Positions 2,197-61,932 of a DNA stretch of 64,000 nt are shown here, piece by piece. The position numbers and the translations under genes are program-made. Source of the stretch: Candidatus Omnitrophica bacterium UBA6249. GTDB lineage: Bacteria > Omnitrophota > Gorgyraeia > Gygaellales > Profunditerraquicolaceae. Location of the stretch: contig DJVT01000009.1 of assembly GCA_002441305.1 (NCBI GenBank), positions 76,839 to 140,838 on the forward strand. The letters are read 5' to 3'. The notes below the pieces were generated by a model that worked only from the letters and a program-made list of their open reading frames with translations, did not search any database and had not been told where the DNA came from. Numbering within the stretch: position 1 is the stretch's first letter; each line of letters begins with the position of its first letter.

Positions 2197-3506
2197 CCGT
2201 GACTATCTTTTTACACAATCCCCAAAAAATAAATTTTTGGGGCAAGACTGTTCAGGATTGGGTTACGGGTGGTAAGGTAGCTTCTAAATTAGGTTACTTT
2301 CGCGATATTATAAAAAAATATAAAATTTTCATATACTGTGATAATTATGGGTCATCGTTTCCTTTTAACAATTTTGTAAAATCACGCATGTTTTCTAGTT
2401 TGGTGAAATATGTAGAAATATACTTGTGGTTGATTATAAATAACCTTAATCCATTCAGAGTGAAAGTAGTTTTTAATAGACATAGGATCAGGCGATCTGA
2501 TATTCTATTGTCAATTACCCACACTTATTTAGATACTAGGGGAGAAGCTGCAAATGCTTTGCTGGAATTAGATTGTAAGAAACTTCTTTATTTATCTCAT
2601 TACATGTTCTTTCCCTCAGTTATTGCGGAGAATATTATTAGAGGAGATAAATCAATTAAGCTTTTTGCTGAAAATAACCTAAGCAAGAACAGCCTGTTTT
2701 TTAAGAAATATTTTCCTGCCTATAAAGAGGATGTTTATACGCTCCCATTTTTATATCAAGAAAGATTTAAAAAAAATGTTCCATTTTCAAGCAGGAATAA
2801 TAAATGTTTAGCTATAGGCAGTTATCAGACTATAGATATTTACGCAAGCGCTTTTCGGAATATGTATGAATATTTCAAAGTAGATACTTTTCATCCAATG
2901 AGAAAATCTATATACGTTAATAAAGATAAAATAAAAAGATATATAGACTGCTATATTTCATACATTAATGATGATGTTAGAAATGTTTTATCGATGGTAA
3001 AGAGCCCTTCTAAAAATGTATTTAGTAAGGCGTATATAAAAGTTCATAATTATTTTATTCGTAATGTTATGGGTAGCTACACGCGACGTGCTTACTATAA
3101 CTTTGATATTACAAGACTGTATAATCAATATAAGATGATTGTTGTTCCCGAAGAAGTTGTGGATTTACCAGGAATTAGCTTCGTAGAAAGTATGGCGTGC
3201 GGATGTGCTTATTTTGGAATTAAAAGTAATATGTACAAGGATATTGGTTTAATTGATGGAGTGCATTATATTGCGTATGATAATAATTTGGACAGTCTTT
3301 TAGATCTTATTAAATATTATCAAGAGCATAATGACAAGTTAGAGAGAATTGCTGAAAACGGATATGATTTTGTAACGAAGAACTTTTCCAAGAATACAGT
3401 CTCAGAACGGTTTGTAGCCGACCTAAAAAATTTCCAGAACGCACTTATTAAAAACGAGAATAAGGCTGATGAGATTGTATTTGAATCATCATTTTGGTAT
3501 AGATAA
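2187..3506 (+). CDS. glycosyltransferase-like protein (GT1-like C-terminal half)
   Basis: The C-terminal FVESMACGCAYFG...DGVHYIAYD...AENGYDFVTKNFS resembles the GT4/GT1 donor-binding region. The N-terminal half is unrecognised. Start codon is uncertain (TTG). Confidence 0.4.
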   Translation: MGVAVTIFLHNPQKINFWGKTVQDWVTGGKVASKLGYFRDIIKKYKIFIYCDNYGSSFPFNNFVKSRMFSSLVKYVEIYLWLIINNLNPFRVKVVFNRHRIRRSDILLSITHTYLDTRGEAANALLELDCKKLLYLSHYMFFPSVIAENIIRGDKSIKLFAENNLSKNSLFFKKYFPAYKEDVYTLPFLYQERFKKNVPFSSRNNKCLAIGSYQTIDIYASAFRNMYEYFKVDTFHPMRKSIYVNKDKIKRYIDCYISYINDDVRNVLSMVKSPSKNVFSKAYIKVHNYFIRNVMGSYTRRAYYNFDITRLYNQYKMIVVPEEVVDLPGISFVESMACGCAYFGIKSNMYKDIGLIDGVHYIAYDNNLDSLLDLIKYYQEHNDKLERIAENGYDFVTKNFSKNTVSERFVADLKNFQNALIKNENKADEIVFESSFWYR

Positions 3507-4888
3507 TGAGAAAAATAGTAAAGTTATTCTCGTCGATAGGTTTCGATAAGGTTGTATCAGCTAATGTATTCTGCCAAGTAGTTATTTTAGTAACAAGTCC
3601 GGTTACGCTTTATTTCATCGGTACTTCTTTTTCGAGAGAAGCGCAAGGATATTATTATACATTTGCCAGTGTTTTAGGCTTACAAAATTTTTTGGAGCTT
3701 GGTTTTTCTCAGTGTATAGTCAATTTTTCTAGTCATGAATTTGCTAATCTTGAGATTAGAAAAGACGGTGCGCTTAGTGGAGATGGTCGTTCCAAGTCTC
3801 GTTTGATATCTATTATACGTCTTTCTTTGAAATGGTATTCTGCCATAGCAGTGTTTATCATGTTTTTCGTTTGTTTAGGGGGGTATTTTTTCTTTCATTT
3901 TCAAAAAGATTATGGAATTGTTTGGGTAATACCGTGGGTTTGTCTTTGTTTTATTACCGCTGTCAGTATTATATTATTACCGATCGGATCGATCCTTGAA
4001 GGGTGCAATCAATATCTCTGGTTAGCAAACTCCAGAATGTGGACTAAATTGTTTGGTTCCATTGCCCTTTGGATTGCCCTTATTAATGGATTAGGACTTT
4101 ATTCAGCGAGTATTTCTTTAATTGTATCTACGACATTATTTATAATAGCATTTGTTAGGAAGTGGAAGGGTTTAATATTCCAAGTTCTCCATAGCAATAT
4201 AACTCATAGTATATCTTGGATAGACGAAATTTGGCCATTTCAATGGAAGGTAGCTGTAGGTTGGATATGTGGTTTTTTTATTTTTAGCTTGTTTAATCCT
4301 GTTTTATTTGCTTTCCAGGGAGCAATAGTGGCTGGGCAAATGGGGATGACGTGGGCTATAACTTCCAGCTTAAACGGCATGGCAAACATATGGACAAACA
4401 CCAAAGCTTCTAAATTCGGAATATATGTTGCAAAAAGAAATAACAAAGACTTAGATTCTCTTTGGTTGAAGTCTACTATTCAATCTGTTTTAATCTGTTT
4501 GATAGGTTCTGTCGTAGTAATTTTGATAATAATGTTTATCAAAAAACACTATCTTATCGGGGAACGATTTCTTGGAATTAGCGAAATCTTAATTTTATGT
4601 TTTGCTAGTGTTGTGAATCAAGTGATTTTTTCTGAGAATTTGTATCTGCGTGCACACCAAAGAGAGCCGTTGTTGTTAGTTTTTGTATTTAATGCTTTTT
4701 TTACGGGCTTAGCAGTTTATTTATTCGGAAGATACCTCAATGTATTTGCAGTCTGTGCATCTTACGCGTTTTTCTTAACTTTAAGCGCATTTTTTTCCAC
4801 GATTATTTTTATTAAGCATAGAAAAAAATGGTCGCAGTCATATTATAAATATTCCCTTTCTAGAAATTATGAATTGTCGTATATGTGA
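3506..4888 (+). CDS. polytopic membrane protein, possible polysaccharide flippase (Wzx/MOP-like)
   Basis: 460 aa with about 12 hydrophobic segments, sitting in a glycan locus. No diagnostic motif recognised. Confidence 0.3.
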   Translation: MRKIVKLFSSIGFDKVVSANVFCQVVILVTSPVTLYFIGTSFSREAQGYYYTFASVLGLQNFLELGFSQCIVNFSSHEFANLEIRKDGALSGDGRSKSRLISIIRLSLKWYSAIAVFIMFFVCLGGYFFFHFQKDYGIVWVIPWVCLCFITAVSIILLPIGSILEGCNQYLWLANSRMWTKLFGSIALWIALINGLGLYSASISLIVSTTLFIIAFVRKWKGLIFQVLHSNITHSISWIDEIWPFQWKVAVGWICGFFIFSLFNPVLFAFQGAIVAGQMGMTWAITSSLNGMANIWTNTKASKFGIYVAKRNNKDLDSLWLKSTIQSVLICLIGSVVVILIIMFIKKHYLIGERFLGISEILILCFASVVNQVIFSENLYLRAHQREPLLLVFVFNAFFTGLAVYLFGRYLNVFAVCASYAFFLTLSAFFSTIIFIKHRKKWSQSYYKYSLSRNYELSYM

Positions 4889-8284: not shown

Positions 8285-9340
8285 GTGATGAAAAAAATAT
8301 TATTATTAGAACTTTGGGGGATAGGTGACGTTGTCCTTGCCAGCGGAGTGTTAAAACAGCTAAAAAGAAGCCTCCCAAAGGCAGAAATCGTACTCTTGGC
8401 CAAGGAGCATTCTAAGGAGGTGTTATTTTATAATAGTGGTATTGACAGAATTATAGCCTATGATTTTCCCTGGACTAAATTTAGCGGTAAATATTTGTTA
8501 TGGAGATGGGATTGGATTAGTTTGTTTATGTTGATTAGGCGGCTGCGATCTGAGAAGTTTGACTTGATTCTTGATGCAAGGGGGGATGTTAGAAACAATT
8601 TCCTTTCATTTTTAATTGGAGCAAAACGGAGAATCGGTTACGATTGGACTGGCGGTGGGTGTTTTCTAACAGATGTCGTAAGATCTGATCGGGAGAAGAT
8701 GCACCGGGTAGATGCATGGGGAAATTTATTAAAATATATCGGGATAGAAAATTGTAATATTAATCCTGCTATTGCAGTTTCTGAAGAATATGAGAGGTGG
8801 GCAGAGAAATTTTTGCAAGATAGGAGAGTTGATAGAAATAAAATTATAGCAGGCATACATCCTGGAGCCAGAATAAAAACGCGATGTTGGCCTCTTGATA
8901 GGTTTTCTGTAGTAGCAGATTACTTGAGGAAGAAAGATTGTGAAGTATTTATTTTTATTGAACCTGGAGGGTACGGGGAAGATATTCGTGTTCCTGATGG
9001 CTGCCATAAGGTTAAACTTAATCTTCATGAACTTATTGCACTTACTAAAAGATTAGATTTTTTAATCTGTAACGATAGCGGGATCATGCATATATCTACT
9101 GCCGTAGGGACACCGGTCGTAGCTATCTTTGGCCCTATGAAACCTGAATGGTTTGGCCCATATGGGGGAGACAATCTGGTTATTATTAAAGAAGATATTT
9201 CGTGCCGGCCTTGTTTTGATTATTGCAAATATGATGAGGCTCGTTGCTTAACCGCTATCCATAAGGACGAGGTAATTGATAAAGTGGAAGGGGTGATTAA
9301 TAAGCTTGCTGTGTTAAAAAATAATCATGCTAAATTATAG
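8285..9340 (+). CDS. glycosyltransferase family 9 (heptosyltransferase-like)
   Basis: The N-terminal LWGIGDVVLASGVLKQLK and the C-terminal ICNDSGIMHISTAVGTPVVAIFGP are typical of GT9. Confidence 0.75.
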   Translation: MMKKILLLELWGIGDVVLASGVLKQLKRSLPKAEIVLLAKEHSKEVLFYNSGIDRIIAYDFPWTKFSGKYLLWRWDWISLFMLIRRLRSEKFDLILDARGDVRNNFLSFLIGAKRRIGYDWTGGGCFLTDVVRSDREKMHRVDAWGNLLKYIGIENCNINPAIAVSEEYERWAEKFLQDRRVDRNKIIAGIHPGARIKTRCWPLDRFSVVADYLRKKDCEVFIFIEPGGYGEDIRVPDGCHKVKLNLHELIALTKRLDFLICNDSGIMHISTAVGTPVVAIFGPMKPEWFGPYGGDNLVIIKEDISCRPCFDYCKYDEARCLTAIHKDEVIDKVEGVINKLAVLKNNHAKL

Positions 9341-10724
9341 TTTTTTTAATAAATATATTTCTTTTATTAAGATATTATTTTTTGTTTTTTTGTTGGGTGT
9401 TCTATCTTTTGGAAGAGCCTTTTCTATAGTTAATCTAAAAATAGAATCCACCCCTCTTTTTGTTACAGAAATATTCTTATTATGTTCAGCGCCTTTAATA
9501 GCAGCCAAAATTAAAAAGATAATTAAGATTGCTCCTTTGTTTTCTGGTTTAATGTTTGCCTATGTTATATTAGGACTATTGCATCTTATTTATAGTTTTC
9601 CTGCCGCTGGATTTTTTGCTCTTCGGGATTTTACTTTTTTATGTGCCTATTCATTATTTTTGCCAGTAGTAGTGGTTTGTATTGATAATTTGAAGGCTTT
9701 AAAGGCCTCCGTTTATATTATTGTTTTTGCCAACATCATTGCAATCGGAATAGGAAGTTTGTTGATTTTTGGAGGCCCTAAAGTAGAAGCCTATGGTTTT
9801 GTTTCTAATGCCAAGAGTTTTCAGATCGGTATGGTTTATGGAATAAGTTCTATTTTTTTGCTAACTTTGTATAATTTCTTTGATAGGAAATTTCTTAGGT
9901 TATTAATCCTATGTTTGGTTTCTTTAAATTTATATATGATTGTAATTTTAAGTGTGAGGAGTCTGTGGTTAGCTGTAATTTTATCAGCCATTTTCTTAAT
10001 GTTCTTAAATGGTTTTAAATCTACGATTAGGGTTTATTTAAAGCTTTTAATTTCTTTTTTGATGATTGGTTCTTTGTTGTTCTGTTTTTGTATGCTAACT
10101 TCCAAAACACGTTATTTAGATAATTTTATTAATAAAGGGAAGAGCCTATTTTATGTTCTTGATATTGTTTCGGGAAATTCTTCTAACTTAAATAGGGGCT
10201 CTTTATCAGAAACAGGGCAGGTAGGATACGATAATATTGTTTGGAGGGAGAAAATTTGGAAGCAAACTCTAAATTTTGCAGGCGATTCATTTTTATTTGG
10301 CAAGGGTTTTGGAAATTACCCGGAATATGATATATGGGGGGTAGGTAAACGTCCTTGTAATCCCTTTACAGACAGTAAGATTACTCCAACCCATAACTAT
10401 CTACTCACAGTTTTTTATAAAACAGGCATTGTTGGGCTTACCCTATTTTTTTCTATTAATCTTTTTGTTTTTTATTATGCACTAAAGCATCTAAAAACTT
10501 GTAAAAATGTTTTTGTAGCGATTATTGTAAAGAGTTCGTTAAGTGTATTGTTGCTGTGGTATGTTATGGCTCTATTTTTTGATGTGATAGACTCCCCGCC
10601 TACGAGCATTCTTTTATGGATTTTTATTGGGTTAATATTCGCGGCAGTTAAGGTAGATCATCCTGAAACAAGCTTAGGACATAAAAGTTCCCAACCGAAA
10701 GTGCATATAAAAAATGAGGATTAG
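9327..10724 (+). CDS. O-antigen ligase/polymerase-like (Wzy_C-type) membrane protein
   Basis: Polytopic, 465 aa. It has a large loop with GFGNYPEY and THNYLLTVFYKTGIVGL, resembling the Wzy_C signature. Confidence 0.5.
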   Translation: MLNYSFFNKYISFIKILFFVFLLGVLSFGRAFSIVNLKIESTPLFVTEIFLLCSAPLIAAKIKKIIKIAPLFSGLMFAYVILGLLHLIYSFPAAGFFALRDFTFLCAYSLFLPVVVVCIDNLKALKASVYIIVFANIIAIGIGSLLIFGGPKVEAYGFVSNAKSFQIGMVYGISSIFLLTLYNFFDRKFLRLLILCLVSLNLYMIVILSVRSLWLAVILSAIFLMFLNGFKSTIRVYLKLLISFLMIGSLLFCFCMLTSKTRYLDNFINKGKSLFYVLDIVSGNSSNLNRGSLSETGQVGYDNIVWREKIWKQTLNFAGDSFLFGKGFGNYPEYDIWGVGKRPCNPFTDSKITPTHNYLLTVFYKTGIVGLTLFFSINLFVFYYALKHLKTCKNVFVAIIVKSSLSVLLLWYVMALFFDVIDSPPTSILLWIFIGLIFAAVKVDHPETSLGHKSSQPKVHIKNED

Positions 10725-55300: not shown

Positions 55301-55604
55301 AAGCATGTCCGCGATCGCCCTGATTTTCGCTATTTTCAAGGTCAAGCCTTCGCCTTTCTGCATACTGGATGAGATCGATGCGGCTTTGGACGAGGCAAAC
55401 GTAGACAGGTTCTCCAGGGCCTTGCAGGAGTTCTCAAAGACTTCGCAGTTTATCGTGATCACTCATAATAAAAAGACTATTGCCAATGCGAATGTGATGT
55501 ACGGGATCACTATGCAGCAGTCGGGTGTTTCGAAGATAGTCTCGGTGAAGCTCTCCCAGAATAAAGAAAAGGAGAACCAGAGGGAGGAGCCGGTTACGGT
55601 TTAA
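52371..55604 (+). CDS. smc: chromosome segregation protein SMC
   Basis: GPNGCGKSNI is the Walker A. Long coiled coils follow, and the C-terminus has LSGGEKSMSAIAL...ILDEIDAALD. Confidence 0.9.
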   Translation: MYFKRLELLGFKSFCDKTVLNFEPGITAVVGPNGCGKSNIFDSIRWVLGEQSAKSLRGSEMLDVIFNGADNKEALSMAEVSLTFDNSSRFFNLDQPEVMITRRLFRSGESEYLLNKATVRLKDIMDLLLGTGVGAESYSIIAQGKIDLVLSSRPEDRRMVFDEASGISKYKAQKRETTRKLEETEQNLLRVNDIVAEVKRQIGSLERQANKARRYKEVFEDLKLKETSQAILDKAGLLKQKEDTLLLADELRKQESALVEKVGELESRIANRQSELKALEESLMSSRSQILNLENSLVRNNEHIAFNQQRIAEIEENKSVLESQIEQSRNKLIQDEEKLKNVRLEYDNLKQNIDQRRSVLAQKEEEIERLSSAIKKSLETISDNKKLIIDLETRISSTHNEVNDFNSKHQVFLARKKRLEIEKAKVYEEKAIAEDALNKVTQELASTRELVDSFRQKILGVKSNLEQESDNLNSVNQQITACENEKLTLVSHKEFLEKLKSKYDNIGESLNAVIYLDKTPKESLTGLVVKVQGQDVLSDEDKARLGGNTLKISGEAKPIELDTVNISEKIARLEEELGELRSRKVLRESCISELTKMSSNLEQELRSHEITLANKESSYETMSEQFNKIKEEEDIIVMELGDVAREISAIEQNLCDAQARLSALNEEERQRQDSIVQEEDNISSNSKAREEVLVLLTQTKTEIEALNRRFTSDAATLKLLDDTYAQDKANLDSVERQISESGERRRIFELEIEDCRNKISQAESGIKELKDSLSGVEAQYNEVSSGTVGTVKQIEASRKELEQARNGLHELEMKDKDLDYRYSSIKERMLSAYKVDLESLGGPAEGVDQGALSMEISELKRKLDSYGTVNLVAIEEYDELKQRYDFLVQQQTDLLTAKDSLHQAILKINRTTKQMFVETFEKVKVEFKNYFRLLFNGGDAQLFLTDESDPLESGIEIICRPPGKKLQNVLLLSGGEKSMSAIALIFAIFKVKPSPFCILDEIDAALDEANVDRFSRALQEFSKTSQFIVITHNKKTIANANVMYGITMQQSGVSKIVSVKLSQNKEKENQREEPVTV

Positions 55605-56770
55605 GAACTGCAGCAGGTGTTGTTTTTACCCTGGTTCTTGGCCTTATACAGGGATTTGTCCGAGGAGGTAATCAGTTCGTCGGGAGTGAGGCCGTTATCG
55701 GGGAAAGTGGCTATTCCCAGGCTCACGGTAAGTTGTTTACCTGGAAAGGTTTCTTCGTTAAAGAAAGGGTATCTTTGGATATCCATCCTCAGCCTTTCGG
55801 CTATCATATAGGCTTCTTTCTGTTCTGTCTGCGGGAGGATAACGGTAAATTCCTCTCCTCCGTAACGGCAGACATAATCCATCTTCCGTGATTGGTTGCG
55901 CAGCAGCCTGGCAAGGTCCCGGAGTATCTTGTCTCCTTCCTGGTGGCCCATAGTATCGTTGTAAATCTTGAAGTTGTCGATATCCAAAGCAATCAGGCTT
56001 AATTTTTCCTTTGCGGCCTTGGCCTTTTCCATTTCCACCTGGAGGAGGTACTGGAAGTATCCGTGGTTCCAGAGGCTCGTAAGATAGTCGGAGTGGGCCC
56101 GTTCAACGGTCAGTTCGAACAGGCGGGAGTTTTCGATAGCCAGGCCTGCCTGGTTAGCAAGCATGGTGAGCATGCGGATATCGTCTTTTGTGATAGGTTC
56201 GTTGGTGATAAAGTTGTCCGCCACGATTATCCCGTTGACGCGGTCCTTGGCTTTAAGCGGGATGAGCAGGAGCTCATTGCCGCCGAATATCTTCAATACC
56301 GGAGAGTTCTTGTATTTCTGCATGGATTGTTTGTCCAGGTGAAGCGGCATCCCTTCCAGCACGGCGAGGGAGAGAGGGTTCTCTTCTTTGTCATACATGG
56401 ATACCTTCAGGTTCTTCACCTGGCGGTTGAAACCGGAATCCAGGACAAAGCTTGAATTCTTGAAGGCGTCGATCAGGTCTTCCAGGTCCATCTTTTCCTG
56501 TTCTATCTTCGTCCAGGCTATATTGGCTTCTTCGCCGTTTTCCGGGCCGATTCCCATCCTGCCTTCGATAATTTTATCCTTTTCGTTGACTAAAAAAAGC
56601 ATGGCGCGGTTGAAACCCAGGCCGGTATGAGCGGTTACGCCGGTAAGAATGATATAGAGGATTTCGTCCAGCTTGAGGGTGGTGCGCATTGCATTGGAGA
56701 TCTCGTAGAGTATGCCCAGCTCGTTTTTGGTGCGTTCAAGTTCGGTTTTAAGCTTGTTCAATTCGTCCAT
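55601..56770 (-). CDS. GAF domain-containing diguanylate cyclase (GGDEF)
   Basis: RYGGEEFTVILP is the GGEEF motif, preceded by a GAF-like region and an N-terminal coiled coil. The start at ATG 56770 (MDELNKL) follows from the promoter geometry. Alternative starts are 56788 (ATG) and 56806 (TTG). Confidence 0.8.
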   Translation of the reverse strand: MDELNKLKTELERTKNELGILYEISNAMRTTLKLDEILYIILTGVTAHTGLGFNRAMLFLVNEKDKIIEGRMGIGPENGEEANIAWTKIEQEKMDLEDLIDAFKNSSFVLDSGFNRQVKNLKVSMYDKEENPLSLAVLEGMPLHLDKQSMQKYKNSPVLKIFGGNELLLIPLKAKDRVNGIIVADNFITNEPITKDDIRMLTMLANQAGLAIENSRLFELTVERAHSDYLTSLWNHGYFQYLLQVEMEKAKAAKEKLSLIALDIDNFKIYNDTMGHQEGDKILRDLARLLRNQSRKMDYVCRYGGEEFTVILPQTEQKEAYMIAERLRMDIQRYPFFNEETFPGKQLTVSLGIATFPDNGLTPDELITSSDKSLYKAKNQGKNNTCCSS

Positions 56771-56778
56771 AATGGTTA

Positions 56779-56806
56779 AGTGTAACATATCTGCGACCAA
56801 TGTCAA
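56779..56806 (-). promoter_or_regulatory. sigma70-type promoter, leaderless geometry (GGDEF gene)
   Basis: On the minus strand: TTGACA (56806-56801), 16-nt spacer, TACACT (56784-56779), then 8 nt to the ATG at 56770. Confidence 0.5.
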
Positions 56807-56833
56807 GGAAGCGGGCGCGGGTTCGTTAAATGA

Positions 56834-56861
56834 TTGACATTTCCCTTCAATCTTATATAAT
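56834..56861 (+). promoter_or_regulatory. sigma70-type promoter (secreted Cys-rich protein gene)
   Basis: TTGACA (56834-56839), 16-nt spacer, TATAAT (56856-56861). The leader carries the AAGGAGGA RBS ahead of the ATG at 56884. Confidence 0.7.
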
Positions 56862-56883
56862 TAAATCAAAATAAGGAGGAGTT

Positions 56884-57378
56884 ATGTTGAAATCCCTAAA
56901 GGCCTTTTTAGCTTTTGTTTTCTTATTCGCCGCCTCGACGGTGGCTGCATTAGCCGAGGACATAACCATCACTACCTATTATCCTTCTCCTTACGGTTCA
57001 TATAACGAACTGCAATTATACCCGCATTCTTCCCCCACAGTCAGCTGCAACTCCTCCAAAAGGGGGACGATGTATTATGATTCCGACGACAATAATATGT
57101 ACGTCTGCAACGGAACGAGCTGGCTGGTTTTAAGCAAGGGATCGGCTTTTACTTACTATTGTTTCTCCAGTTCTTCTTACGGAAGCCCGGTTTGCACGAA
57201 TTACGGAGGCAGCCGGGGCTATTGTCCTTCCGGATACACGCAGCAGGGGTCGTTAGGCGCATGGGGGCGTTGTTATGACAGCTCCGGTAATTATGCTTAT
57301 ATGCGCCCTCCCGGAGGCAGCTGCGGGGGCAGTTATTCCGGCAGTACGGTGGGGAACGCCTACGTCTGTTCCCAGTAA
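56884..57378 (+). CDS. secreted Cys/Gly/Ser/Tyr-rich protein, unknown function
   Basis: The signal peptide is MLKSLKAFLAFVFLFAASTVAALA. The mature protein has 8 Cys, a TTYYPSPYGSY motif and a GTMYYDSDDNNMYVCNGTSW motif. The gene has a strong RBS (aaggagga) and its own promoter. Confidence 0.6.
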   Translation: MLKSLKAFLAFVFLFAASTVAALAEDITITTYYPSPYGSYNELQLYPHSSPTVSCNSSKRGTMYYDSDDNNMYVCNGTSWLVLSKGSAFTYYCFSSSSYGSPVCTNYGGSRGYCPSGYTQQGSLGAWGRCYDSSGNYAYMRPPGGSCGGSYSGSTVGNAYVCSQ

Positions 57379-57506
57379 TTTTCCGGGGATGCCATCCTTT
57401 TTGCATTATTTCCAGAAATCACAAATTTCCGCAATCCATGTTAGATGAGCCTCTTTTTTGCGTCAGTTATGGCAGAAAGGAGGGGTTTTGGCCGGCAGGA
57501 ATGTGG

Positions 57507-57535
57507 TTGACACCCAGTCGGTGGCGGGTTATAAT
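57507..57535 (+). promoter_or_regulatory. consensus sigma70 promoter (recA)
   Basis: TTGACA (57507-57512), 17-nt spacer, TATAAT (57530-57535). A leader of about 27 nt carries the GGAGGGA RBS ahead of the ATG at 57569. Confidence 0.75.
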
Positions 57536-57568
57536 AATCACTTAAATTTATACAGCGGAGGGACTAAG

Positions 57569-58597
57569 ATGGCGGTCGATAAAAGAAAAGAAAAAGAAGA
57601 AGTGAGGGATTTATCCGACAGGCATAAGGCGCTGGAGCTGGCTTTGGCGCAGATAGAAAAACAGTTCGGCAAGGGTTCGATTATGAAGCTCGGAGCCCAC
57701 ACCAAGGTTAACGTCGAGACCATATCTACAGGAGCGCTTACCCTGGATACCGCCCTGGGTGTGGGAGGCTTGCCGCGCGGCAGGGTGGTGGAGATATTCG
57801 GCCCTGAGGCATCAGGAAAAACTACTTTGACTTTGACGGCGATAAGGGAGATACAGAAAAAGGGCGGAGTTGCCGCGTTTATAGACGCTGAACATGCCTT
57901 TGACCCGATCTACGCCAAGCTTATCGGGGTAAATCTTGACGATCTCCTGATTTCACAGCCGGATACGGGCGAGCAGGCGCTGGAGATAGCCGAGACTCTG
58001 GTACGTTCCAATGCGGTTGACCTGGTAGTGGTCGATTCGGTAGCGGCGCTTACTCCCCGCGCTGAGATCGAAGGAGATATGGGGGATTCGCATATGGGGC
58101 TGCAGGCGCGCCTTATGTCGCAGGCCCTGCGCAAGTTAACCGGTTCGATCAGCAAATCTCGCACTACGGTAATTTTTATCAACCAGCTGAGGGAAAAAAT
58201 CGGAGTAATGTTCGGCTCCCCGGAGACGACTCCCGGGGGGAGGGCGCTCAAGTTTTATTCATCGGTCAGGCTGGATGTGCGAAGGATCGCTTATTTGAAA
58301 GAGGGGGATAGGATAGTTGGTAACCATGTAAGGGTCAGGGTGGTCAAGAACAAGGTGGCTCCCCCGTTCCGCGAGGCAGAGTTCGATATTATGCATAATG
58401 AAGGGATTGCCAAGACCGGGTCGGTTATCGATGCAGGCGTGAATCTGGGCGTACTTGCCAAATCCGGCACCTGGATTTCCTTTGAAGACAAAAAGCTGGG
58501 GCAGGGCCGGGATGCGGCGATAAAGTTCCTGAAAGAGACCCCCAAGGTGCAGGAAGATATTGAAAAAGAAGTTCGTAAGAAGATCAGCCTCGAATAG
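57569..58597 (+). CDS. recA: recombinase RecA
   Basis: [12 protein letters not shown] is the Walker A, and [22 protein letters not shown] follows. The ATG at 57569 has RBS ggaggga. The track's upstream extension covers the promoter. Confidence 0.95.
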
Positions 58598-58722
58598 GCC
58601 GCAAGGCCATGGTTTGCTTTCAATTCAGCAAAGCCATAGGCCGCAAGGCCATGGTTTGCTTTCAAGTTGGCAAAGCCATAGGCCGCAAGGCCATGGTTTG
58701 CTTTCAATTCAGCAAAGCCATG
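58597..58722 (+). repeat. 3 x 42-bp perfect-register tandem repeat between recA and recX
   Basis: Units are 58597-58638, 58639-58680 and 58681-58722, with consensus ggccgcaaggccatggtttgctttcaattcagcaaagccata. Unit 2 differs at 3 positions. Each unit contains the hairpin GGCC-GCAA-GGCC. Confidence 0.9.
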
Positions 58723-59213
58723 ATAAAGCCGTAATTCAATCCCGCCGAGACGCAGCTGTAAGCGGCAGTCTGGAAAAGGCAAAAGAATACGCTTTTTTCC
58801 TGCTCAAGTTCCGCCTGCGCAGTGAACATGAGCTGATATCCAGGTTGAGGCAAAAGGGTTTTTCCGAAGAAGCCTGCCGGGAGACGGTAAACTTTCTAAG
58901 AGACAGGCGTTTTATCGATGATCGCGTTTTTGCCAAGGGCTGGGTTGCCAGCAGGCTCAAGCGGCCTTTTGGTTTAAAGAGGATAAAAGGCGAATTGCTT
59001 CAAAAGGGGCTGGCCAAGGAAGTTATAGAAGAGGTTTTTGCCCAGGCCGGGAAAGGGTATGATGAACTTTCCGTTGTAAAAGACCTGGCCGGGCGGAGAT
59101 TCTGCAGGTTGAAAGGCATAGATCCTCTTAAAGCAAGACAAAGGGTGTATGGTTATTTGCTGCGGCGCGGATTTTCTCCCGATTCGATAAAGGCGGCGGT
59201 AAAAGGATTTTGA
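58698..59213 (+). CDS. recX: recombination regulator RecX (start uncertain)
   Basis: AFFLLKFRLRSEHELISRLRQKGFSEEACRETVNFLRDRRFIDDRVFA is RecX-like. There is no in-frame ATG. TTG candidates are 58560, 58614, 58656 and 58698. I chose the last because it gives a typical length of about 171 aa. Confidence 0.65.
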   Translation: MLSIQQSHDKAVIQSRRDAAVSGSLEKAKEYAFFLLKFRLRSEHELISRLRQKGFSEEACRETVNFLRDRRFIDDRVFAKGWVASRLKRPFGLKRIKGELLQKGLAKEVIEEVFAQAGKGYDELSVVKDLAGRRFCRLKGIDPLKARQRVYGYLLRRGFSPDSIKAAVKGF

Positions 59214-59243
59214 TGAGTGAGGGGATAGGTGTATTTTACAGGA

Positions 59244-59294
59244 ATGTTTGTTTTGTAACGTTAGAGAGGATAACAAGTTACATAAACTGTCTAC
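59244..59294 (+). repeat. bipartite intergenic element, single copy G (upstream of alaS)
   Basis: atgtttgttttgtaa (59244-59258), N18, gttacataaactgtctac (59277-59294). The ATG lies 1 nt downstream. Confidence 0.85.
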
Positions 59295-59295
59295 G

Positions 59296-61932
59296 ATGAA
59301 GGCGGAAGAGTTAAGAGAAAAGTTCCTGGATTTTTTCAAGGGCAAGGGGCATAAGGCTGTGGAAAGCGATTCGCTTGTGCCCAAGGAAGACCCCACGGTT
59401 TTGTTTACCCCGGCCGGGATGAACCAGTTCAAGAAAGAGTTTATGGGGTTTGATTCTGGGTTCAGGCGGGCGGCTACCTGCCAGCGCTGCCTGCGTACGG
59501 ATGACCTGGAAAAGGTCGGCAAGACGAGCAGCCACCTTACTTTTTTCGAGATGCTGGGGAATTTTTCTTTCGGGGATTATTTCAAGCAGGAGGCGATCGC
59601 CTGGGCATGGGAATTTTTGACAAAAGAGTTGAAGATCAGCCCGGACAGGCTGTGGGTTTCGGTTTACAAGAATGACGATGAAGCATACTCTATCTGGAAA
59701 AATGAGGTAGGTATTCCGGAAGGAAGAATCGTCAGGCTCGGGGATAAGGACAATTTCTGGCCGGCGGAGGCGAAAGAGAAGGGCCCTAACGGACCTTGTG
59801 GTCCATGCTCGGAGATCTTCTATGATTTTGGCCCAGGGACCGGGTGCCTGAAGAGCACATGCGATCCTTCATGCAGCTGCGGAAGGTTCGTGGAGATATG
59901 GAACCTGGTTTTTACCCAGTTCAACCGTAAGGATGGCGGAGCGCTTGAACCGCTGCCGAATAAGAATATCGATACCGGGATGGGGCTTGAGAGGCTGACT
60001 GCGGTTATGCAGGGCAGGAGGAATAATTTCGAGACGGAGTTGTTCCAGCCGGTGATCGATGAGATACGCAGGCATATGACATGCGAGCCGGAAGAGGCGC
60101 AAAGACTCCTCTACGCATTGGCCGATCATATCCGGGCAGTGGTATTTTCCATATATGACGGGATTACTCCTTCCAACGAGGGCCGCGGTTACATTGTCAG
60201 GAAGATAATCCGCAAGAGCGTAATGCATTTAAGGAGCCTGGGAATAGAGAAACCTTTCCTGAACAGGCTGGTTGGAGAATTGGCGCAGATTATGCATTCT
60301 GCTTACCCGGACCTGAAAGACAGGCAGGAGGATATCGCGCAGGTCATCTTGAATGAAGAAACAAATTTTATCAATACGCTCAAGTTGAGCGGCGCGCTGA
60401 TAGATTCCGAGATAGAAAAAATAAAAGAAGATTTGAATAAAGACCCCAGGGTGGACGGCTTTATTATCGCCAGTGACGGTACCGGGGCTGCTTTAGGAAA
60501 TATTTGTTTTAAATTATATGACACTAATGGCATCCCCCCGGAAATAACAAGAAATGAGCTGAAATCGAGGCTTATCAGCGTAGGCAAAAGTTTCGAAGAG
60601 ACATTCCAGGACAGGCTTAATGAACAGAAGGTTCTTTCAAAATCATCCAGCAAGATGAAAGGGGATGTGTTTAGCGTCCCGAAGCACGCGGTTGAGGGGT
60701 TGAAAAAAACACAATTTCTCGGTTATGACCAATCTGCAGTGAAATCCAAGATTGTCAGGACTATCGAAGACGATGATCACCCTGACCGAGTAGGTATTAT
60801 TTTGGACAAGACGGTTTTTTATGCCGAATCAGGAGGCCAGGTTAGCGATACTGGTATTTTAGCAAGCGGCAGCAATATTTTTCCGGTTGTCGATGTTCAG
60901 AAAATAGATGATGTTTTTATTCATTGGATAAACAAGGCCCAGGATTTTCCTAAGACAGAAGATACTGTAGAAGCCAGGATCGATTCCTCGTATCGCATGA
61001 ATGTGGCGCGTAACCATACCGCCACGCATATACTGCAGGCGGCATTGCGCCAGGTATTGGGCGGGCATGTCCAGCAGCAGGGCTCTCTGGTCAACGCGGA
61101 AAAACTGCGTTTCGACTTTACTCACTTCAAGGGATTGTCTAAAGAGGAGCTCGCCGGAGTGGAGGAAGCGGCTAACGGGTATATATCCGGCAAGCAGGCT
61201 GTGAGGTGCGACCAGATGTCTTTAAAGGATGCCAAAAAGACGGGGGCGCTGGCTTTTTTCGAGGAGAAGTACGGAGAGACCGTGCGCGTTGTTTCTATTG
61301 ACGGGGTCTCGAAAGAATTTTGCGGGGGGACGCACCTGGGGAGCATAGACGAGATCGGGCTGATAAAAATCACCGGGGAAAGTTCCGTGGCCAGCGGAAT
61401 AAGGAGGATCGAAGCGGTAACCGGGGAGGCGGCAAAGAAATTCGTCGAAGAACAGAAAAAGAAGGCCGCCGAAGAATCCAGGAAAAAGGACAGGCTGAAG
61501 GTTTTAAAAGAAGAAGACAAGAAAAAGAGCGCCGAGATGAACAGGCGCCTGCTCGATTTGGCCCCTGCGCTGGCAGGCAAGGCCTTGGAGGCAGGAGGCA
61601 TCAATTTTGTTTCCGCTTTCGAAGTCGGGATGGATATGAGGGATTTGCGCAGCCTGGCGGATAAAGTAAGGGAAGGGTTAAAACACGGGGTTGTTGTTTT
61701 AGGCTCAGGGGAACAGGGAAAAGCGCATTTAGTTGTGGCATTAACGCCCGATCTTTTGGAGCGGGGGCTGGACGCTTCCGTCCTGATACGGCAGGCGGCT
61801 TCGGAGATCGGTGGTTCCGGAGGGGGCAGGCCGGATTTTGCCCAGGCAGGAGGCACGAAACCGGAAAACTTTGCGTTGGCATTTGAGAAATTAAGAGATA
61901 TAATTAAAGGCCTGCCTGCGGAAGGCAGATAA
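59296..61932 (+). CDS. alaS: alanine--tRNA ligase
   Basis: FTPAGMNQFK, WNLVFTQFNR, HTATHILQAAL and CGGTH are diagnostic. The ATG at 59296 lies 1 nt after repeat box 2. Confidence 0.95.
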   Translation: MKAEELREKFLDFFKGKGHKAVESDSLVPKEDPTVLFTPAGMNQFKKEFMGFDSGFRRAATCQRCLRTDDLEKVGKTSSHLTFFEMLGNFSFGDYFKQEAIAWAWEFLTKELKISPDRLWVSVYKNDDEAYSIWKNEVGIPEGRIVRLGDKDNFWPAEAKEKGPNGPCGPCSEIFYDFGPGTGCLKSTCDPSCSCGRFVEIWNLVFTQFNRKDGGALEPLPNKNIDTGMGLERLTAVMQGRRNNFETELFQPVIDEIRRHMTCEPEEAQRLLYALADHIRAVVFSIYDGITPSNEGRGYIVRKIIRKSVMHLRSLGIEKPFLNRLVGELAQIMHSAYPDLKDRQEDIAQVILNEETNFINTLKLSGALIDSEIEKIKEDLNKDPRVDGFIIASDGTGAALGNICFKLYDTNGIPPEITRNELKSRLISVGKSFEETFQDRLNEQKVLSKSSSKMKGDVFSVPKHAVEGLKKTQFLGYDQSAVKSKIVRTIEDDDHPDRVGIILDKTVFYAESGGQVSDTGILASGSNIFPVVDVQKIDDVFIHWINKAQDFPKTEDTVEARIDSSYRMNVARNHTATHILQAALRQVLGGHVQQQGSLVNAEKLRFDFTHFKGLSKEELAGVEEAANGYISGKQAVRCDQMSLKDAKKTGALAFFEEKYGETVRVVSIDGVSKEFCGGTHLGSIDEIGLIKITGESSVASGIRRIEAVTGEAAKKFVEEQKKKAAEESRKKDRLKVLKEEDKKKSAEMNRRLLDLAPALAGKALEAGGINFVSAFEVGMDMRDLRSLADKVREGLKHGVVVLGSGEQGKAHLVVALTPDLLERGLDASVLIRQAASEIGGSGGGRPDFAQAGGTKPENFALAFEKLRDIIKGLPAEGR

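Follow-up and report, generated by a model that had tools for sequence, protein, structure and literature searches.

Three tandem copies of a dispersed palindromic element, probably REP/RPE-like, within the recX reading frame downstream of recA in an Omnitrophota genome

The array of 42-bp repeats that follows recA in the 64,000-nucleotide stretch of DNA analysed here (hereafter the window) is best explained as three tandem copies of a dispersed, coding-compatible palindromic element of the REP/RPE kind, tolerated in the disordered tail of RecX. We give this reading a probability of roughly four in five. Copies of the same family were found at many unrelated places in Omnitrophota-type contigs and, when inside genes, mostly in one reading frame.

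Tandem Repeats Finder returned a single array at positions 58594-58721 (period 42, 3.0 copies, 93% matches, score 235), by a wide margin the strongest tandem repeat of the window, which agrees with the three contiguous hairpin units of the original prediction; as a control for this repeat, shuffled sequences were used, and none of 100 gave any match. In codon register the units occupy 58596-58637, 58638-58679 and 58680-58721, on the + strand like every feature of the window described below. Units 1 and 3 are the same in sequence, and unit 2, the top match of the window to R1, the covariance model of the family built in this analysis (60.3 bits), has three clustered base differences, all within the loop of its large hairpin. 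Each unit folds into a small hairpin, GGCC-GCAA-GGCC, followed by a large one with arms AUGGUUUGC and GCAAAGCCAU. In unit 1, GGCC 58597-58600 pairs with GGCC 58605-58608, and 58609-58617 with 58628-58637, with a bulged G. In silico folding, proposed earlier as a check, gave each unit a free energy of about -17 to -18 kcal/mol, with z between about -3 and -4, and the 221-nt array region as a whole also folded better than its shuffles (z = -3.3). The 3′ tag of unit 3 is ATG, not ATA. An ATG at 58720 opens the short ORF that had been noticed (ATG-ATA-AAG-CCG-TAA). Next comes a 51-nt in-frame spacer (DKAVIQSRRDAAVSGSL, 58722-58772), which L201, a relative at 97% identity, has as well; its alignment to the 42-bp unit is poor. 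Possibly it is a fourth unit that has decayed, the whole insert at the recA-recX junction measuring 168 nt, or 4×42. A scan of 56000-60000 against Rfam 15, with E values up to 10, produced three chance-level matches, none of them within the array.

The array had been thought to fill an intergenic junction and to deprive recX of its start. The recX frame indeed has no ATG, and the TTG codons pointed out at 58560, 58614, 58656 and 58698 were all seen in frame, but the first of these, inside recA, has every appearance of the true start. The recA coding sequence (57569-58597 in the ORF list; 79-93% identity to RecA by tblastn, over 70+ Omnitrophota loci) ends with a TAG at 58595-58597 that unit 1 supplies through its 5′ tag (ATAG). 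The TTG at 58560-58562 lies 35 nt 5′ of this stop, in the +1 frame of recA, and a Shine-Dalgarno-like AGGAAG (58551-58556), likewise within recA, precedes it by 3-5 nt. Across 50 related Omnitrophota loci the motif cAGGAaGATA-TTG is near-invariant, and a TTG is found at -38 or -35 from the recA stop whether repeats are present or absent; in repeat-free relatives it is the sole canonical start in the recX frame. Synonymous variation in recA is suppressed at AGGA..TTG, the third-position entropy of recA codons -3 to -1 being 0.26, 0.33 and 0.0 bits, versus about 0.8-1.9 in adjacent codons. Gene callers choose the TTG start as well, recX of L201 (10001-10576) overlapping recA (8929-10038). From this conservation we conclude that recX very probably begins at TTG 58560 and that a start inside recA is the norm for the clade. 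A conserved start downstream of the array in orthologues, which the original prediction had named as a finding that would speak against it, did not turn up: the conserved position is the TTG at -38/-35. Mycobacterial recA and recX are co-transcribed and likewise overlap, the beginning of recX sharing 32-35 bp with the end of recA (PMC3062782). The overlap here is similar, 38 nt (58560-58597), but the phylum is different and the start is a TTG; for mycobacteria, inserted repeats have not been described.

Two other ways of reading the junction were rejected. Several filled junctions (L001, L002, L013) lack the TTGs inside the units, and where repeats are missing no start at all lies 3′ of the recA stop. 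A programmed +1 frameshift yielding a RecA-RecX fusion was discarded in view of the variable pre-stop codons (gaa, gag, gcc, agt, ggt and others), which form no slippery site, and of the conserved Shine-Dalgarno and TTG.

With its start within recA, recX has the array inside its reading frame (58560-59213, 217 aa), and the proposal that the repeats add a tail to RecX is supported. The frame is open through the array and codes, as had been predicted, for RPQGHGLLS(I/S)(Q/W)QSH three times; frame conservation suggests that the array is translated. RecX would thus comprise, in order, a leader of 12 aa encoded where recX overlaps recA, the three units of 14 aa each, a spacer of 17 aa and the conserved core (EKAKEYAFFLLKF..., 58773-59213 with the stop codon). 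NCBIfam RecX models match residues ~68-216 with E ~1e-25, under their equivalog cut-offs, and Pfam RecX_HTH1/2/3 are recorded on homologues. In the AF2 model the core has the three tandem three-helix repeats of RecX, nine helices with pLDDT above 90, the spacer is a helix (pLDDT ~70), and residues 1-50 stay below 50. As modelled, the array only lengthens a disordered N-terminal tail.

The suspicion that copy number varies among relatives proved right: RecX orthologues have 0 to ~5 units, and the window has three versus one in L201, at 97% identity. In all 15 filled recA-recX junctions the insert length is divisible by 3, including the 6 whose inserts are not multiples of 42 (36, 57, 57, 60, 63 and 81). 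The single unit of L201 would suit an assembly artefact, in which one unit was multiplied into three, as would an N-run inside such an array in L056, from which it follows that these repeats are hard to assemble. However, three positions set unit 2 apart from units 1 and 3, many independent assemblies (L002, L007, L087, L089, L106, L140 and L161) carry arrays of 2-3 units, several sources have yielded RecX proteins with 2-5 units, and a 42-bp unit is well inside read length. We therefore hold an artefact to be extremely unlikely.

Within one clade, ~15 of 50 species have a filled junction, and others bear footprints. L010 is filled and L024 empty, with identical flanks, and on the RecX tree close relatives differ, junctions that are filled, empty or marked by a footprint being intermingled. 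Comparison of empty with filled sites is compatible with a TA/ATA duplication, with one mismatch. No further copy was present in the window, nor in 460 kb around recX in 80 genomes, except for two copies in a neighbouring gene in L056, which makes the junction strikingly preferred in those lineages. Its occupancy, ~30-40% of the clade, is far above that of a site in holB (3 of 120 clusters) and could reflect selection instead of neutral tolerance.

The search for other copies of the 42-mer, proposed at the outset, failed within the window but succeeded in metagenomes, with at least 139 matches on at least 120 contigs; only 4 among the matches listed lie near recA/recX. Most copies away from this junction are solitary, although several contigs bear 2-4 separate copies on both strands, up to 4 per 15 kb. 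With frame a denoting the KPQGxGLASxSQSH reading and frame c the one that contains a stop, 48 of the 137 listed copies are deep within long ORFs in frame a, and a further 20 and 9 in the same frame are at N- and C-terminal edges of long ORFs. Frame b accounts for only 6, reverse frames for 13, and frame c inside a gene for none of the 137. One reverse-frame copy, in L159, reads as a stretch that is hydrophobic and membrane-like. The idea that the units are bypassed in translation or excised from the RNA was rejected on the ground that in-gene copies never occupy frame c, the sole frame-c case (L105) being a gene end. In 8 genes (HolB, MetRS, UvrA in two cases, ApbE, AcrB, FtsK and ETF-alpha/Fer4) a Pfam domain extends across the insert, and KPQGNGLASNSQSH is the junction sequence predicted in HolB, UvrA or MetRS. 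HolB orthologues without the unit measure 319 aa (99 clusters) and those with one unit 333 aa, in two lineages and at the same GAT|AAGCC site; L140, assigned to Omnitrophota by its HolB homologues, has two units in HolB. In 7 of the 137 listed copies the tag closes an ORF that is 100 codons long or longer. Between inverted copies 1-1.5 kb apart in L153 and L159 there was no transposase, the intervening genes being a nucleotidyltransferase/HEPN-like pair and membrane proteins. A scan of viral contigs gave one chance match, devoid of the small hairpin.

The family consensus is ATA|RGCC-RSAR-GGC-N-ATGGTTTG-GCY-TCCNAT-RGC-CAAAG-CCAT|AR. When folded, it gives first a hairpin of 3-4 bp and then one of 11 bp, in which a bulged G is conserved. 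The unit can form tandem arrays and nest inside its own loop. The bases 5′ of the unit are ATA in 85 of the 137 listed copies, TTA in 10, GTA in 8 and CTA in 7; ATA/TA at both unit ends, 42 nt apart, may be either a duplication or a target. The GNRA-type loop that had been put forward exists in the window (GCAA) but is not a family trait, the loop consensus being R-S-A-R, often ACAA, AGAG or AGAA. Of the alternative pairings proposed, that within the unit is conserved and that across unit junctions is not, because most copies elsewhere stand alone.

The hairpin itself has been maintained. Stem positions are paired in 93% of cases versus 87.3% in shuffles, none of 500 shuffles reaching as high, and double changes were found at 9 of the 15 stem pairs; slid controls gave 16-49%. 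These data bear on the proposal that selection acts on the protein, the 14-residue His/Gly/Ser-rich peptide being a functional module (for metal binding, for interaction or as a degradation tag) through which RecX and the other host proteins are modulated. The bias towards one frame (48 of the 67 deep intragenic copies among the matches listed) and the conservation of G-x-G-L and Q-S-H in the peptide are what such a module would leave. Yet the paired changes keep the stem while altering residues non-conservatively, with L to S accompanying Q to R in L002 and, across the set, exchanges of Ala with Ser/Cys/Gly and of Pro with Arg/Trp. Moreover, many copies lie between genes or are read in other frames, one being the L159 copy mentioned above, the hosts are functionally unrelated, and the array region is predicted by AF2 to be disordered; selection for the peptide thus seems highly unlikely.

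A selected cis-regulatory RNA device specific to recA-recX, of the kind that the original prediction offered among its possibilities, would have the hairpins protect the recA message or slow recX ribosomes, with copy number setting the RecA:RecX ratio and the dispersed family as a mere source. RecX overproduction is harmful, and in E. coli a hairpin located in the recA-recX intergenic region acts as a terminator and limits recX expression. The filled junctions and footprints of the clade, the lack of other copies in the flanking 460 kb, and the stability of each hairpin pair and of the 221-nt region would all be accounted for by such a device. On the other hand, the unit resides in dozens of unrelated genes and in intergenic sites, junction states are interleaved among close relatives, and the GNRA loop is not conserved. 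As in E. coli, a structured sequence separates the recA end from the recX body, but in the window the recX ORF includes the hairpins, whose family is dispersed. An intrinsic terminator or attenuator would be locus-specific and carry a U-tract; a terminator scan found no + strand terminator-like site and no U-tract in 58594-58721. Occlusion of the start codon is also unlikely, because the TTG and its AGGA are outside the hairpins, 36-45 nt 5′ of the first one. Finally, stem mismatches are G.U (21) and A.C (23) at equal frequency, so there is no sense-strand bias and nothing indicates selection on a sense RNA. On balance we judge a dedicated device unlikely.

We thus return to tandem copies of a tolerated, dispersed palindromic element, for which the following course of events can be proposed. 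Insertion would have occurred at the TA(A/G) of the recA stop, with the element's 5′ tag restoring that stop. The stretch from the recA end to the first RecX helix may be the only one where 14-codon inserts harm neither protein. The unit being stop-free in the recX frame and its peptide hydrophilic (Gly/Ser/Pro/His), each copy would add 14 disordered residues to the N-terminal tail of RecX. Copy number would then shift by slippage or unequal exchange or, alternatively, by re-insertion beside the ATA at the 3′ end of each unit. The hairpin would be retained as a DNA-level palindrome for the mobilising or copying machinery and not for recA-recX regulation; if the array also damps translation of recX or stabilises the recA mRNA, as is possible, that would be a side effect.

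Among known systems, RPEs are dispersed palindromes found in frame in unrelated, often essential genes and read as extra peptide (PMC10969869). The unit found in frame in HolB, MetRS, UvrA, FtsK, ApbE, AcrB and RecX behaves likewise. It is set apart by length and description, 42 bp (14 codons) in Omnitrophota against ~100-150 bp and ten families in Rickettsia, as well as by its tandem arrays, its nesting in its own loop and its ATA(A/G) tag; RPEs end in CGTC (PMC3733652). REPs have a GTAG or CGTC tetranucleotide tag at one end, and some are reported to lie within genes, notably those for replication and repair (PMC3733652). Like REPs, which are 20-40 bp long, the Omnitrophota unit is a short imperfect palindrome in many copies and clusters, with a tag beside the stem from which the preceding gene often takes its TAG stop, as recA does here. 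Unlike them it has two hairpins per unit and is tagged ATA(A/G), GTA being as rare as noted above, and about half of the listed copies or more are intragenic, REPs being typically extragenic. REPs are associated with RAYT genes, which encode IS200/IS605-type Y1 transposases and are flanked by the repeats; among the contigs covered here neither a RAYT nor any other mobilising gene came to light. The small size, non-autonomous look, dispersal and filled or empty orthologous sites recall MITEs, but the unit is much shorter and its ends, AAGCC... and ...GCCAT, are not inverted repeats. A bolder view, to which we give a small but appreciable chance, is that the unit is an undescribed, phylum-wide "translated REP", site-specific (ATA|RGCC), of exactly 14 stop-free hydrophilic codons, self-nesting, array-building and able to colonise essential genes, whose persistent copy at the recA stop has been co-opted for RecX:RecA dosage.

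These observations would settle where recX starts in the clade, at a TTG within recA that makes the two genes overlap by 38 nt, and explain the steps of 14 residues in RecX length. They also serve as a warning that gene callers will mis-start or split unit-bearing genes. RPE-like selfish palindromic DNA, in frame within essential genes and with a unit as short as 14 codons, would thereby extend to an uncultivated, poorly understood phylum. The filled and empty sites being clear, metagenomes alone suffice for studying insertion rules, the tolerance of proteins to insertion and how disordered segments originate, and the covariance model can be used for masking or counting copies.

The family appears to be undescribed so far, a literature search having returned no paper tying Omnitrophota to such repeats. 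Against a word-indexed protein database the consensus peptide had 1 match only. An exhaustive HMMER search with the 42-aa repeat of the window gave 19 matches, six of which were inspected: four were unrelated low-complexity repeats, and two (P0242 and P0249) were genuine.

The recA (57569-58597), recX (58560-59213) and alaS (from 59296) ORFs all lie on the + strand of the window. Tandem Repeats Finder reported a single strong array there, at 58594-58721 (period 42, 3.0 copies, 93% matches, score 235), and no array was matched in shuffled versions of the window. Units 1 and 3 are identical in sequence, and unit 2 differs by three clustered bases. In each unit, GGCC pairs with GGCC in a small 4-bp hairpin, after which AUGGUUUGC pairs with GCAAAGCCAU in a second hairpin that carries a single bulged G; a unit folds with about −17 to −18 kcal/mol on either strand. 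The recX frame has no ATG, and its in-frame TTG codons are at 58560, 58614, 58656 and 58698. Everything that the original prediction had described was present, namely the three units, the hairpins and the recX frame without ATG, and its interpretation was partly supported. Unit 3 is separated from the RecX core by an in-frame spacer of 51 nt (58722-58772) encoding DKAVIQSRRDAAVSGSL, which has a small hairpin of its own and is common to L201, a relative 97% identical to the window. This spacer aligns poorly to the unit; as the insert after the recA stop totals 168 nt (4×42), it may be a decayed fourth unit. Upstream, a perfect match to a sigma-70-type promoter (TTGACA, 17 nt, TATAAT; 12/12) was noted at 57507-57535, 34 nt before the recA ATG. 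Between recA and a GAF-GGDEF gene (55601-56806, − strand) sits a 164-aa ORF (56884-57378) with a signal-peptide-like start and many Cys, Tyr, Ser and Gly residues, also called in L201 and giving no Pfam match.

To position the recX start, the recA stop and the RecX core were located in each of 80 genomic loci. Where no repeat is present, the first core codon lies only 4 or 7 nt after the recA stop, and the recX frame offers just one ATG, GTG or TTG codon, a TTG within recA and in its +1 frame, 38 or 35 nt before that stop. This TTG at −38/−35 is present in 50 loci, with cAGGAaGATA directly 5′ of it. Third-position variation is 0.26, 0.33 and 0.0 bits in the three recA codons before it (neighbouring codons, about 0.8-1.9 bits), and such near-frozen positions are the expected outcome of an overlapping ribosome-binding site and start. 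Judged from this comparison of sequences, the TTG at 58560 is the conserved recX start codon of the relatives; in mycobacteria, recX overlaps the recA 3′ end by 32-35 bp (PMC3062782). With recX starting inside recA, the array, which occupies the recX ORF from codon 13 onward, does not remove the recX start. All 15 unit-bearing junctions are in frame from the TTG to the core, even the 6 whose insert length is not divisible by 42 (36, 57, 57, 60, 63 and 81 nt), which is hard to explain unless the insert is translated. The TTG codons within units, also put forward as starts, were rejected, since several filled junctions (L001, L002, L013) lack them; among the candidate starts, that inside recA stood.

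The best 120 RecX homologues, of which the named ones all come from Candidatus Omnitrophota/Omnitrophica MAGs, share the N-terminus M/L-KKKxV(R/K)xSxS, after which (R/K)P(Q/E)GxGL(A/P)SxSQSH occurs between 0 and about 5 times ahead of the core EKAKEYAFLLLKF. Upstream of this core, the lead is 17 aa long (44 clusters), 22 aa (8 clusters), 31 aa (21 clusters) or 45 aa (10 clusters), with a maximum of 80 aa, and its lengths step by 14 aa. AlphaFold2, run with 36 homologues, gave RecX a nine-helix core with pLDDT above 90, and residues 1-50 (leader and repeats) with pLDDT below 50 and no secondary structure. The units are thus predicted to lengthen a disordered RecX tail, and the proposal that the repeats add a tail to RecX was supported.

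With a covariance model built from the units, the 64-kb window gave no copy beyond these three (next best, 8.4 bits), and 460 kb surrounding recX from 80 genomes gave 17 copies. Fifteen of these are at the recX 5′ end; the other two belong to L056, whose small signal-peptide ORF directly behind recA has units nested and in tandem, with a run of N within the array. In a single clade of the RecX tree, junctions holding 0, 1 or 2 units are intermingled with one another and with junctions that carry a 15-nt footprint (GCCGCAA|AGYCAT, translated as RPQSH), which argues for frequent gains and losses. Copy number, whose check in relatives had been proposed, does vary: L201, syntenic and 97% identical over 2.7 kb, has one unit versus three in the window, a difference of 84 nt. 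That the three copies arose as an assembly artefact is very unlikely given this one-unit state, the three bases that set unit 2 apart and the numerous independent arrays at other places. Two further arrangements were seen. In a distant Omnitrophota set, recA and recX are about 1.5 kb apart (L035, L039, L046, L050, L055-L056, L058-L060, L062-L065, L067-L068, L070, L073-L074, L077 and L079-L080). The recX of L007 (2950-3170) is not preceded by recA; it retains the GGAATATTGAAAAAA start context, behind a promoter-like sequence of its own (TTGTATAATAT), and carries three in-frame units with a GUC/GAC variant of the small stem.

Scanning a metagenome collection with GGCNATGGTTTG-N12-CAAAGCCAT gave at least 139 matches in at least 120 contigs, and only 4 among the matches listed were near recA/recX. 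Several contigs had 2-4 separate copies, on both strands. The logo of 170 distinct copies reads ATA, RGCC-RSAR-GGC-N-ATGGTTTG-GCY-TCCNAT-RGC-CAAAG-CCAT and a second ATA exactly 42 nt past the first, beyond which conservation is at background; the GNRA-type loop of the original prediction is not conserved across this family. Tandem units each sit after the ATA ending the previous one, and in a common compound form one unit is nested in another's loop, after GATA and before GCC. These layouts, together with the recA junctions of close relatives, empty in L024 (GAATAACGCC) and filled in L010 (GAATA[GGCC...GCC]ATGACGCT), lead us to infer insertion at TA/ATA beside a GCC-like sequence.

Coding context was assessed from stop-to-stop ORFs across 137 copies among the matches listed. 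In 48 copies, frame a (KPQGxGLASxSQSH) was the one read, with 40 or more codons of a long ORF on either side; in 20, frame a was read at the N-terminal edge of an ORF of 100 codons or more, as in recX, and in 9 at the C-terminal edge of an ORF of this size. Frame b accounted for 6 copies and the reverse frames for 13; none of the 137 was intragenic in frame c, which contains TAA/TAG. In 7 copies, the TAA/TAG of the tag terminates an ORF of 100 codons or more that lies upstream, as for recA. Pfam matches flanking the insert on both sides confirmed real genes as hosts: DNA polymerase III delta′ (HolB), methionyl-tRNA synthetase, UvrA (two different sites), ApbE, an AcrB-family pump, FtsK and an ETF-alpha/ferredoxin fusion. 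For HolB, whose named homologues are from Omnitrophota, 99 of 120 clusters are 319 aa long without insert; two lineages, 67% identical to each other, have one unit (333 aa) at the same site between D and KPCG (GAT|AAGCC), and L140 has two. The 304-aa homologues (P0135, P0136, P0148 and others), a subset of these Omnitrophota proteins, lack the whole C-x-x-C...C-x-x-C zinc module, the place of unit insertion in other lineages.

Constraint on the hairpins was measured on 81 distinct units. Stem cells were paired in 93% of cases versus 87.3% in column shuffles (0 of 500 as high) and 16-49% with slid pairings. Both sides had changed in 9 of the 15 stem pairs (for example GC 57/CG 19 at 24-35, AU 73/GC 7 at 16-44, UA 40/CG 17 at 26-33). 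Such paired changes are non-conservative in the peptide: in L002, Leu to Ser is coupled to Gln to Arg, and in the protein set Ala varies with Ser, Cys or Gly, and Pro with Arg or Trp. Changes that keep the stem and alter the peptide point to selection on the nucleic acid rather than on the peptide. A protein-level function of the repeat peptide is accordingly very improbable, being in conflict with these compensatory changes and with the copies in other frames. One such copy, in reverse frame (L159, − strand ORF 2224-3663), encodes a hydrophobic segment, ...FWLMALLIGKQTIALWLIGL..., within an apparent membrane-spanning stretch of a 479-aa protein; hydrophobic surroundings may accommodate the reverse frame. 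G.U and A.C mismatches were equally common in the stems (21 vs 23), which, on sequence grounds, does not point to a sense RNA over a DNA palindrome.

Our preferred reading, to which we give a probability of roughly 0.8, takes the array for a passenger: a palindromic, coding-compatible element would have inserted at the recA stop, regenerating this stop with its tag, in what would be the sole short site sparing both RecA and the RecX fold, and would afterwards have multiplied locally. The hairpins might instead have been selected primarily to set the RecA:RecX ratio. In favour of this, units are much more frequent at the junction than at the holB site, and the flanks of the junction hold none; nevertheless the unit is dispersed, empty sites are interleaved with filled ones, the array holds no terminator-like site on the + strand, the start and Shine-Dalgarno sequence are outside the hairpins, and a sense-strand bias is absent, so that we regard this primary function as unlikely. 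A side effect of the array on expression is possible. We consider the case of moderate interest, for the repeat family that it revealed and not for recA-recX regulation.

The closest analogues of this family are the Rickettsia palindromic elements, inserted in frame in many genes (PMC10969869), and the REP elements, whose tag beside the stem often provides the TAG stop of the upstream gene and of which intragenic copies are reported in replication and repair genes (PMC3733652). The unit behaves like both. It fails strict REP membership by its tag, ATA(A/G) instead of GTAG or CGTC, and by its location, about half or more of the listed copies being intragenic; it fails membership of the Rickettsia elements by its length (42 bp versus about 100-150 bp) and phylum. 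No paper describing such repeats in Omnitrophota was found in the open-access literature.

Other hairpin sequences, also in frame, are nested in the 42-bp unit in L018 (2408-2474), L133, L004, L005 and L139, among them CCCCGCC-TAC-GGCGGGG and CCTGCC...GGCAGG (read as ACLPARQGLAS), and a further peptide type, TRPYRSGRYAPLRSSQ, occurs in RecX P0002, P0008, P0014, P0033, P0061 and P0064. These probably represent further dispersed palindrome families. Finally, contig L153 carries a nucleotidyltransferase and HEPN-like gene pair (625-1292) resembling a toxin-antitoxin system, flanked by oppositely oriented unit arrays 1 kb apart.
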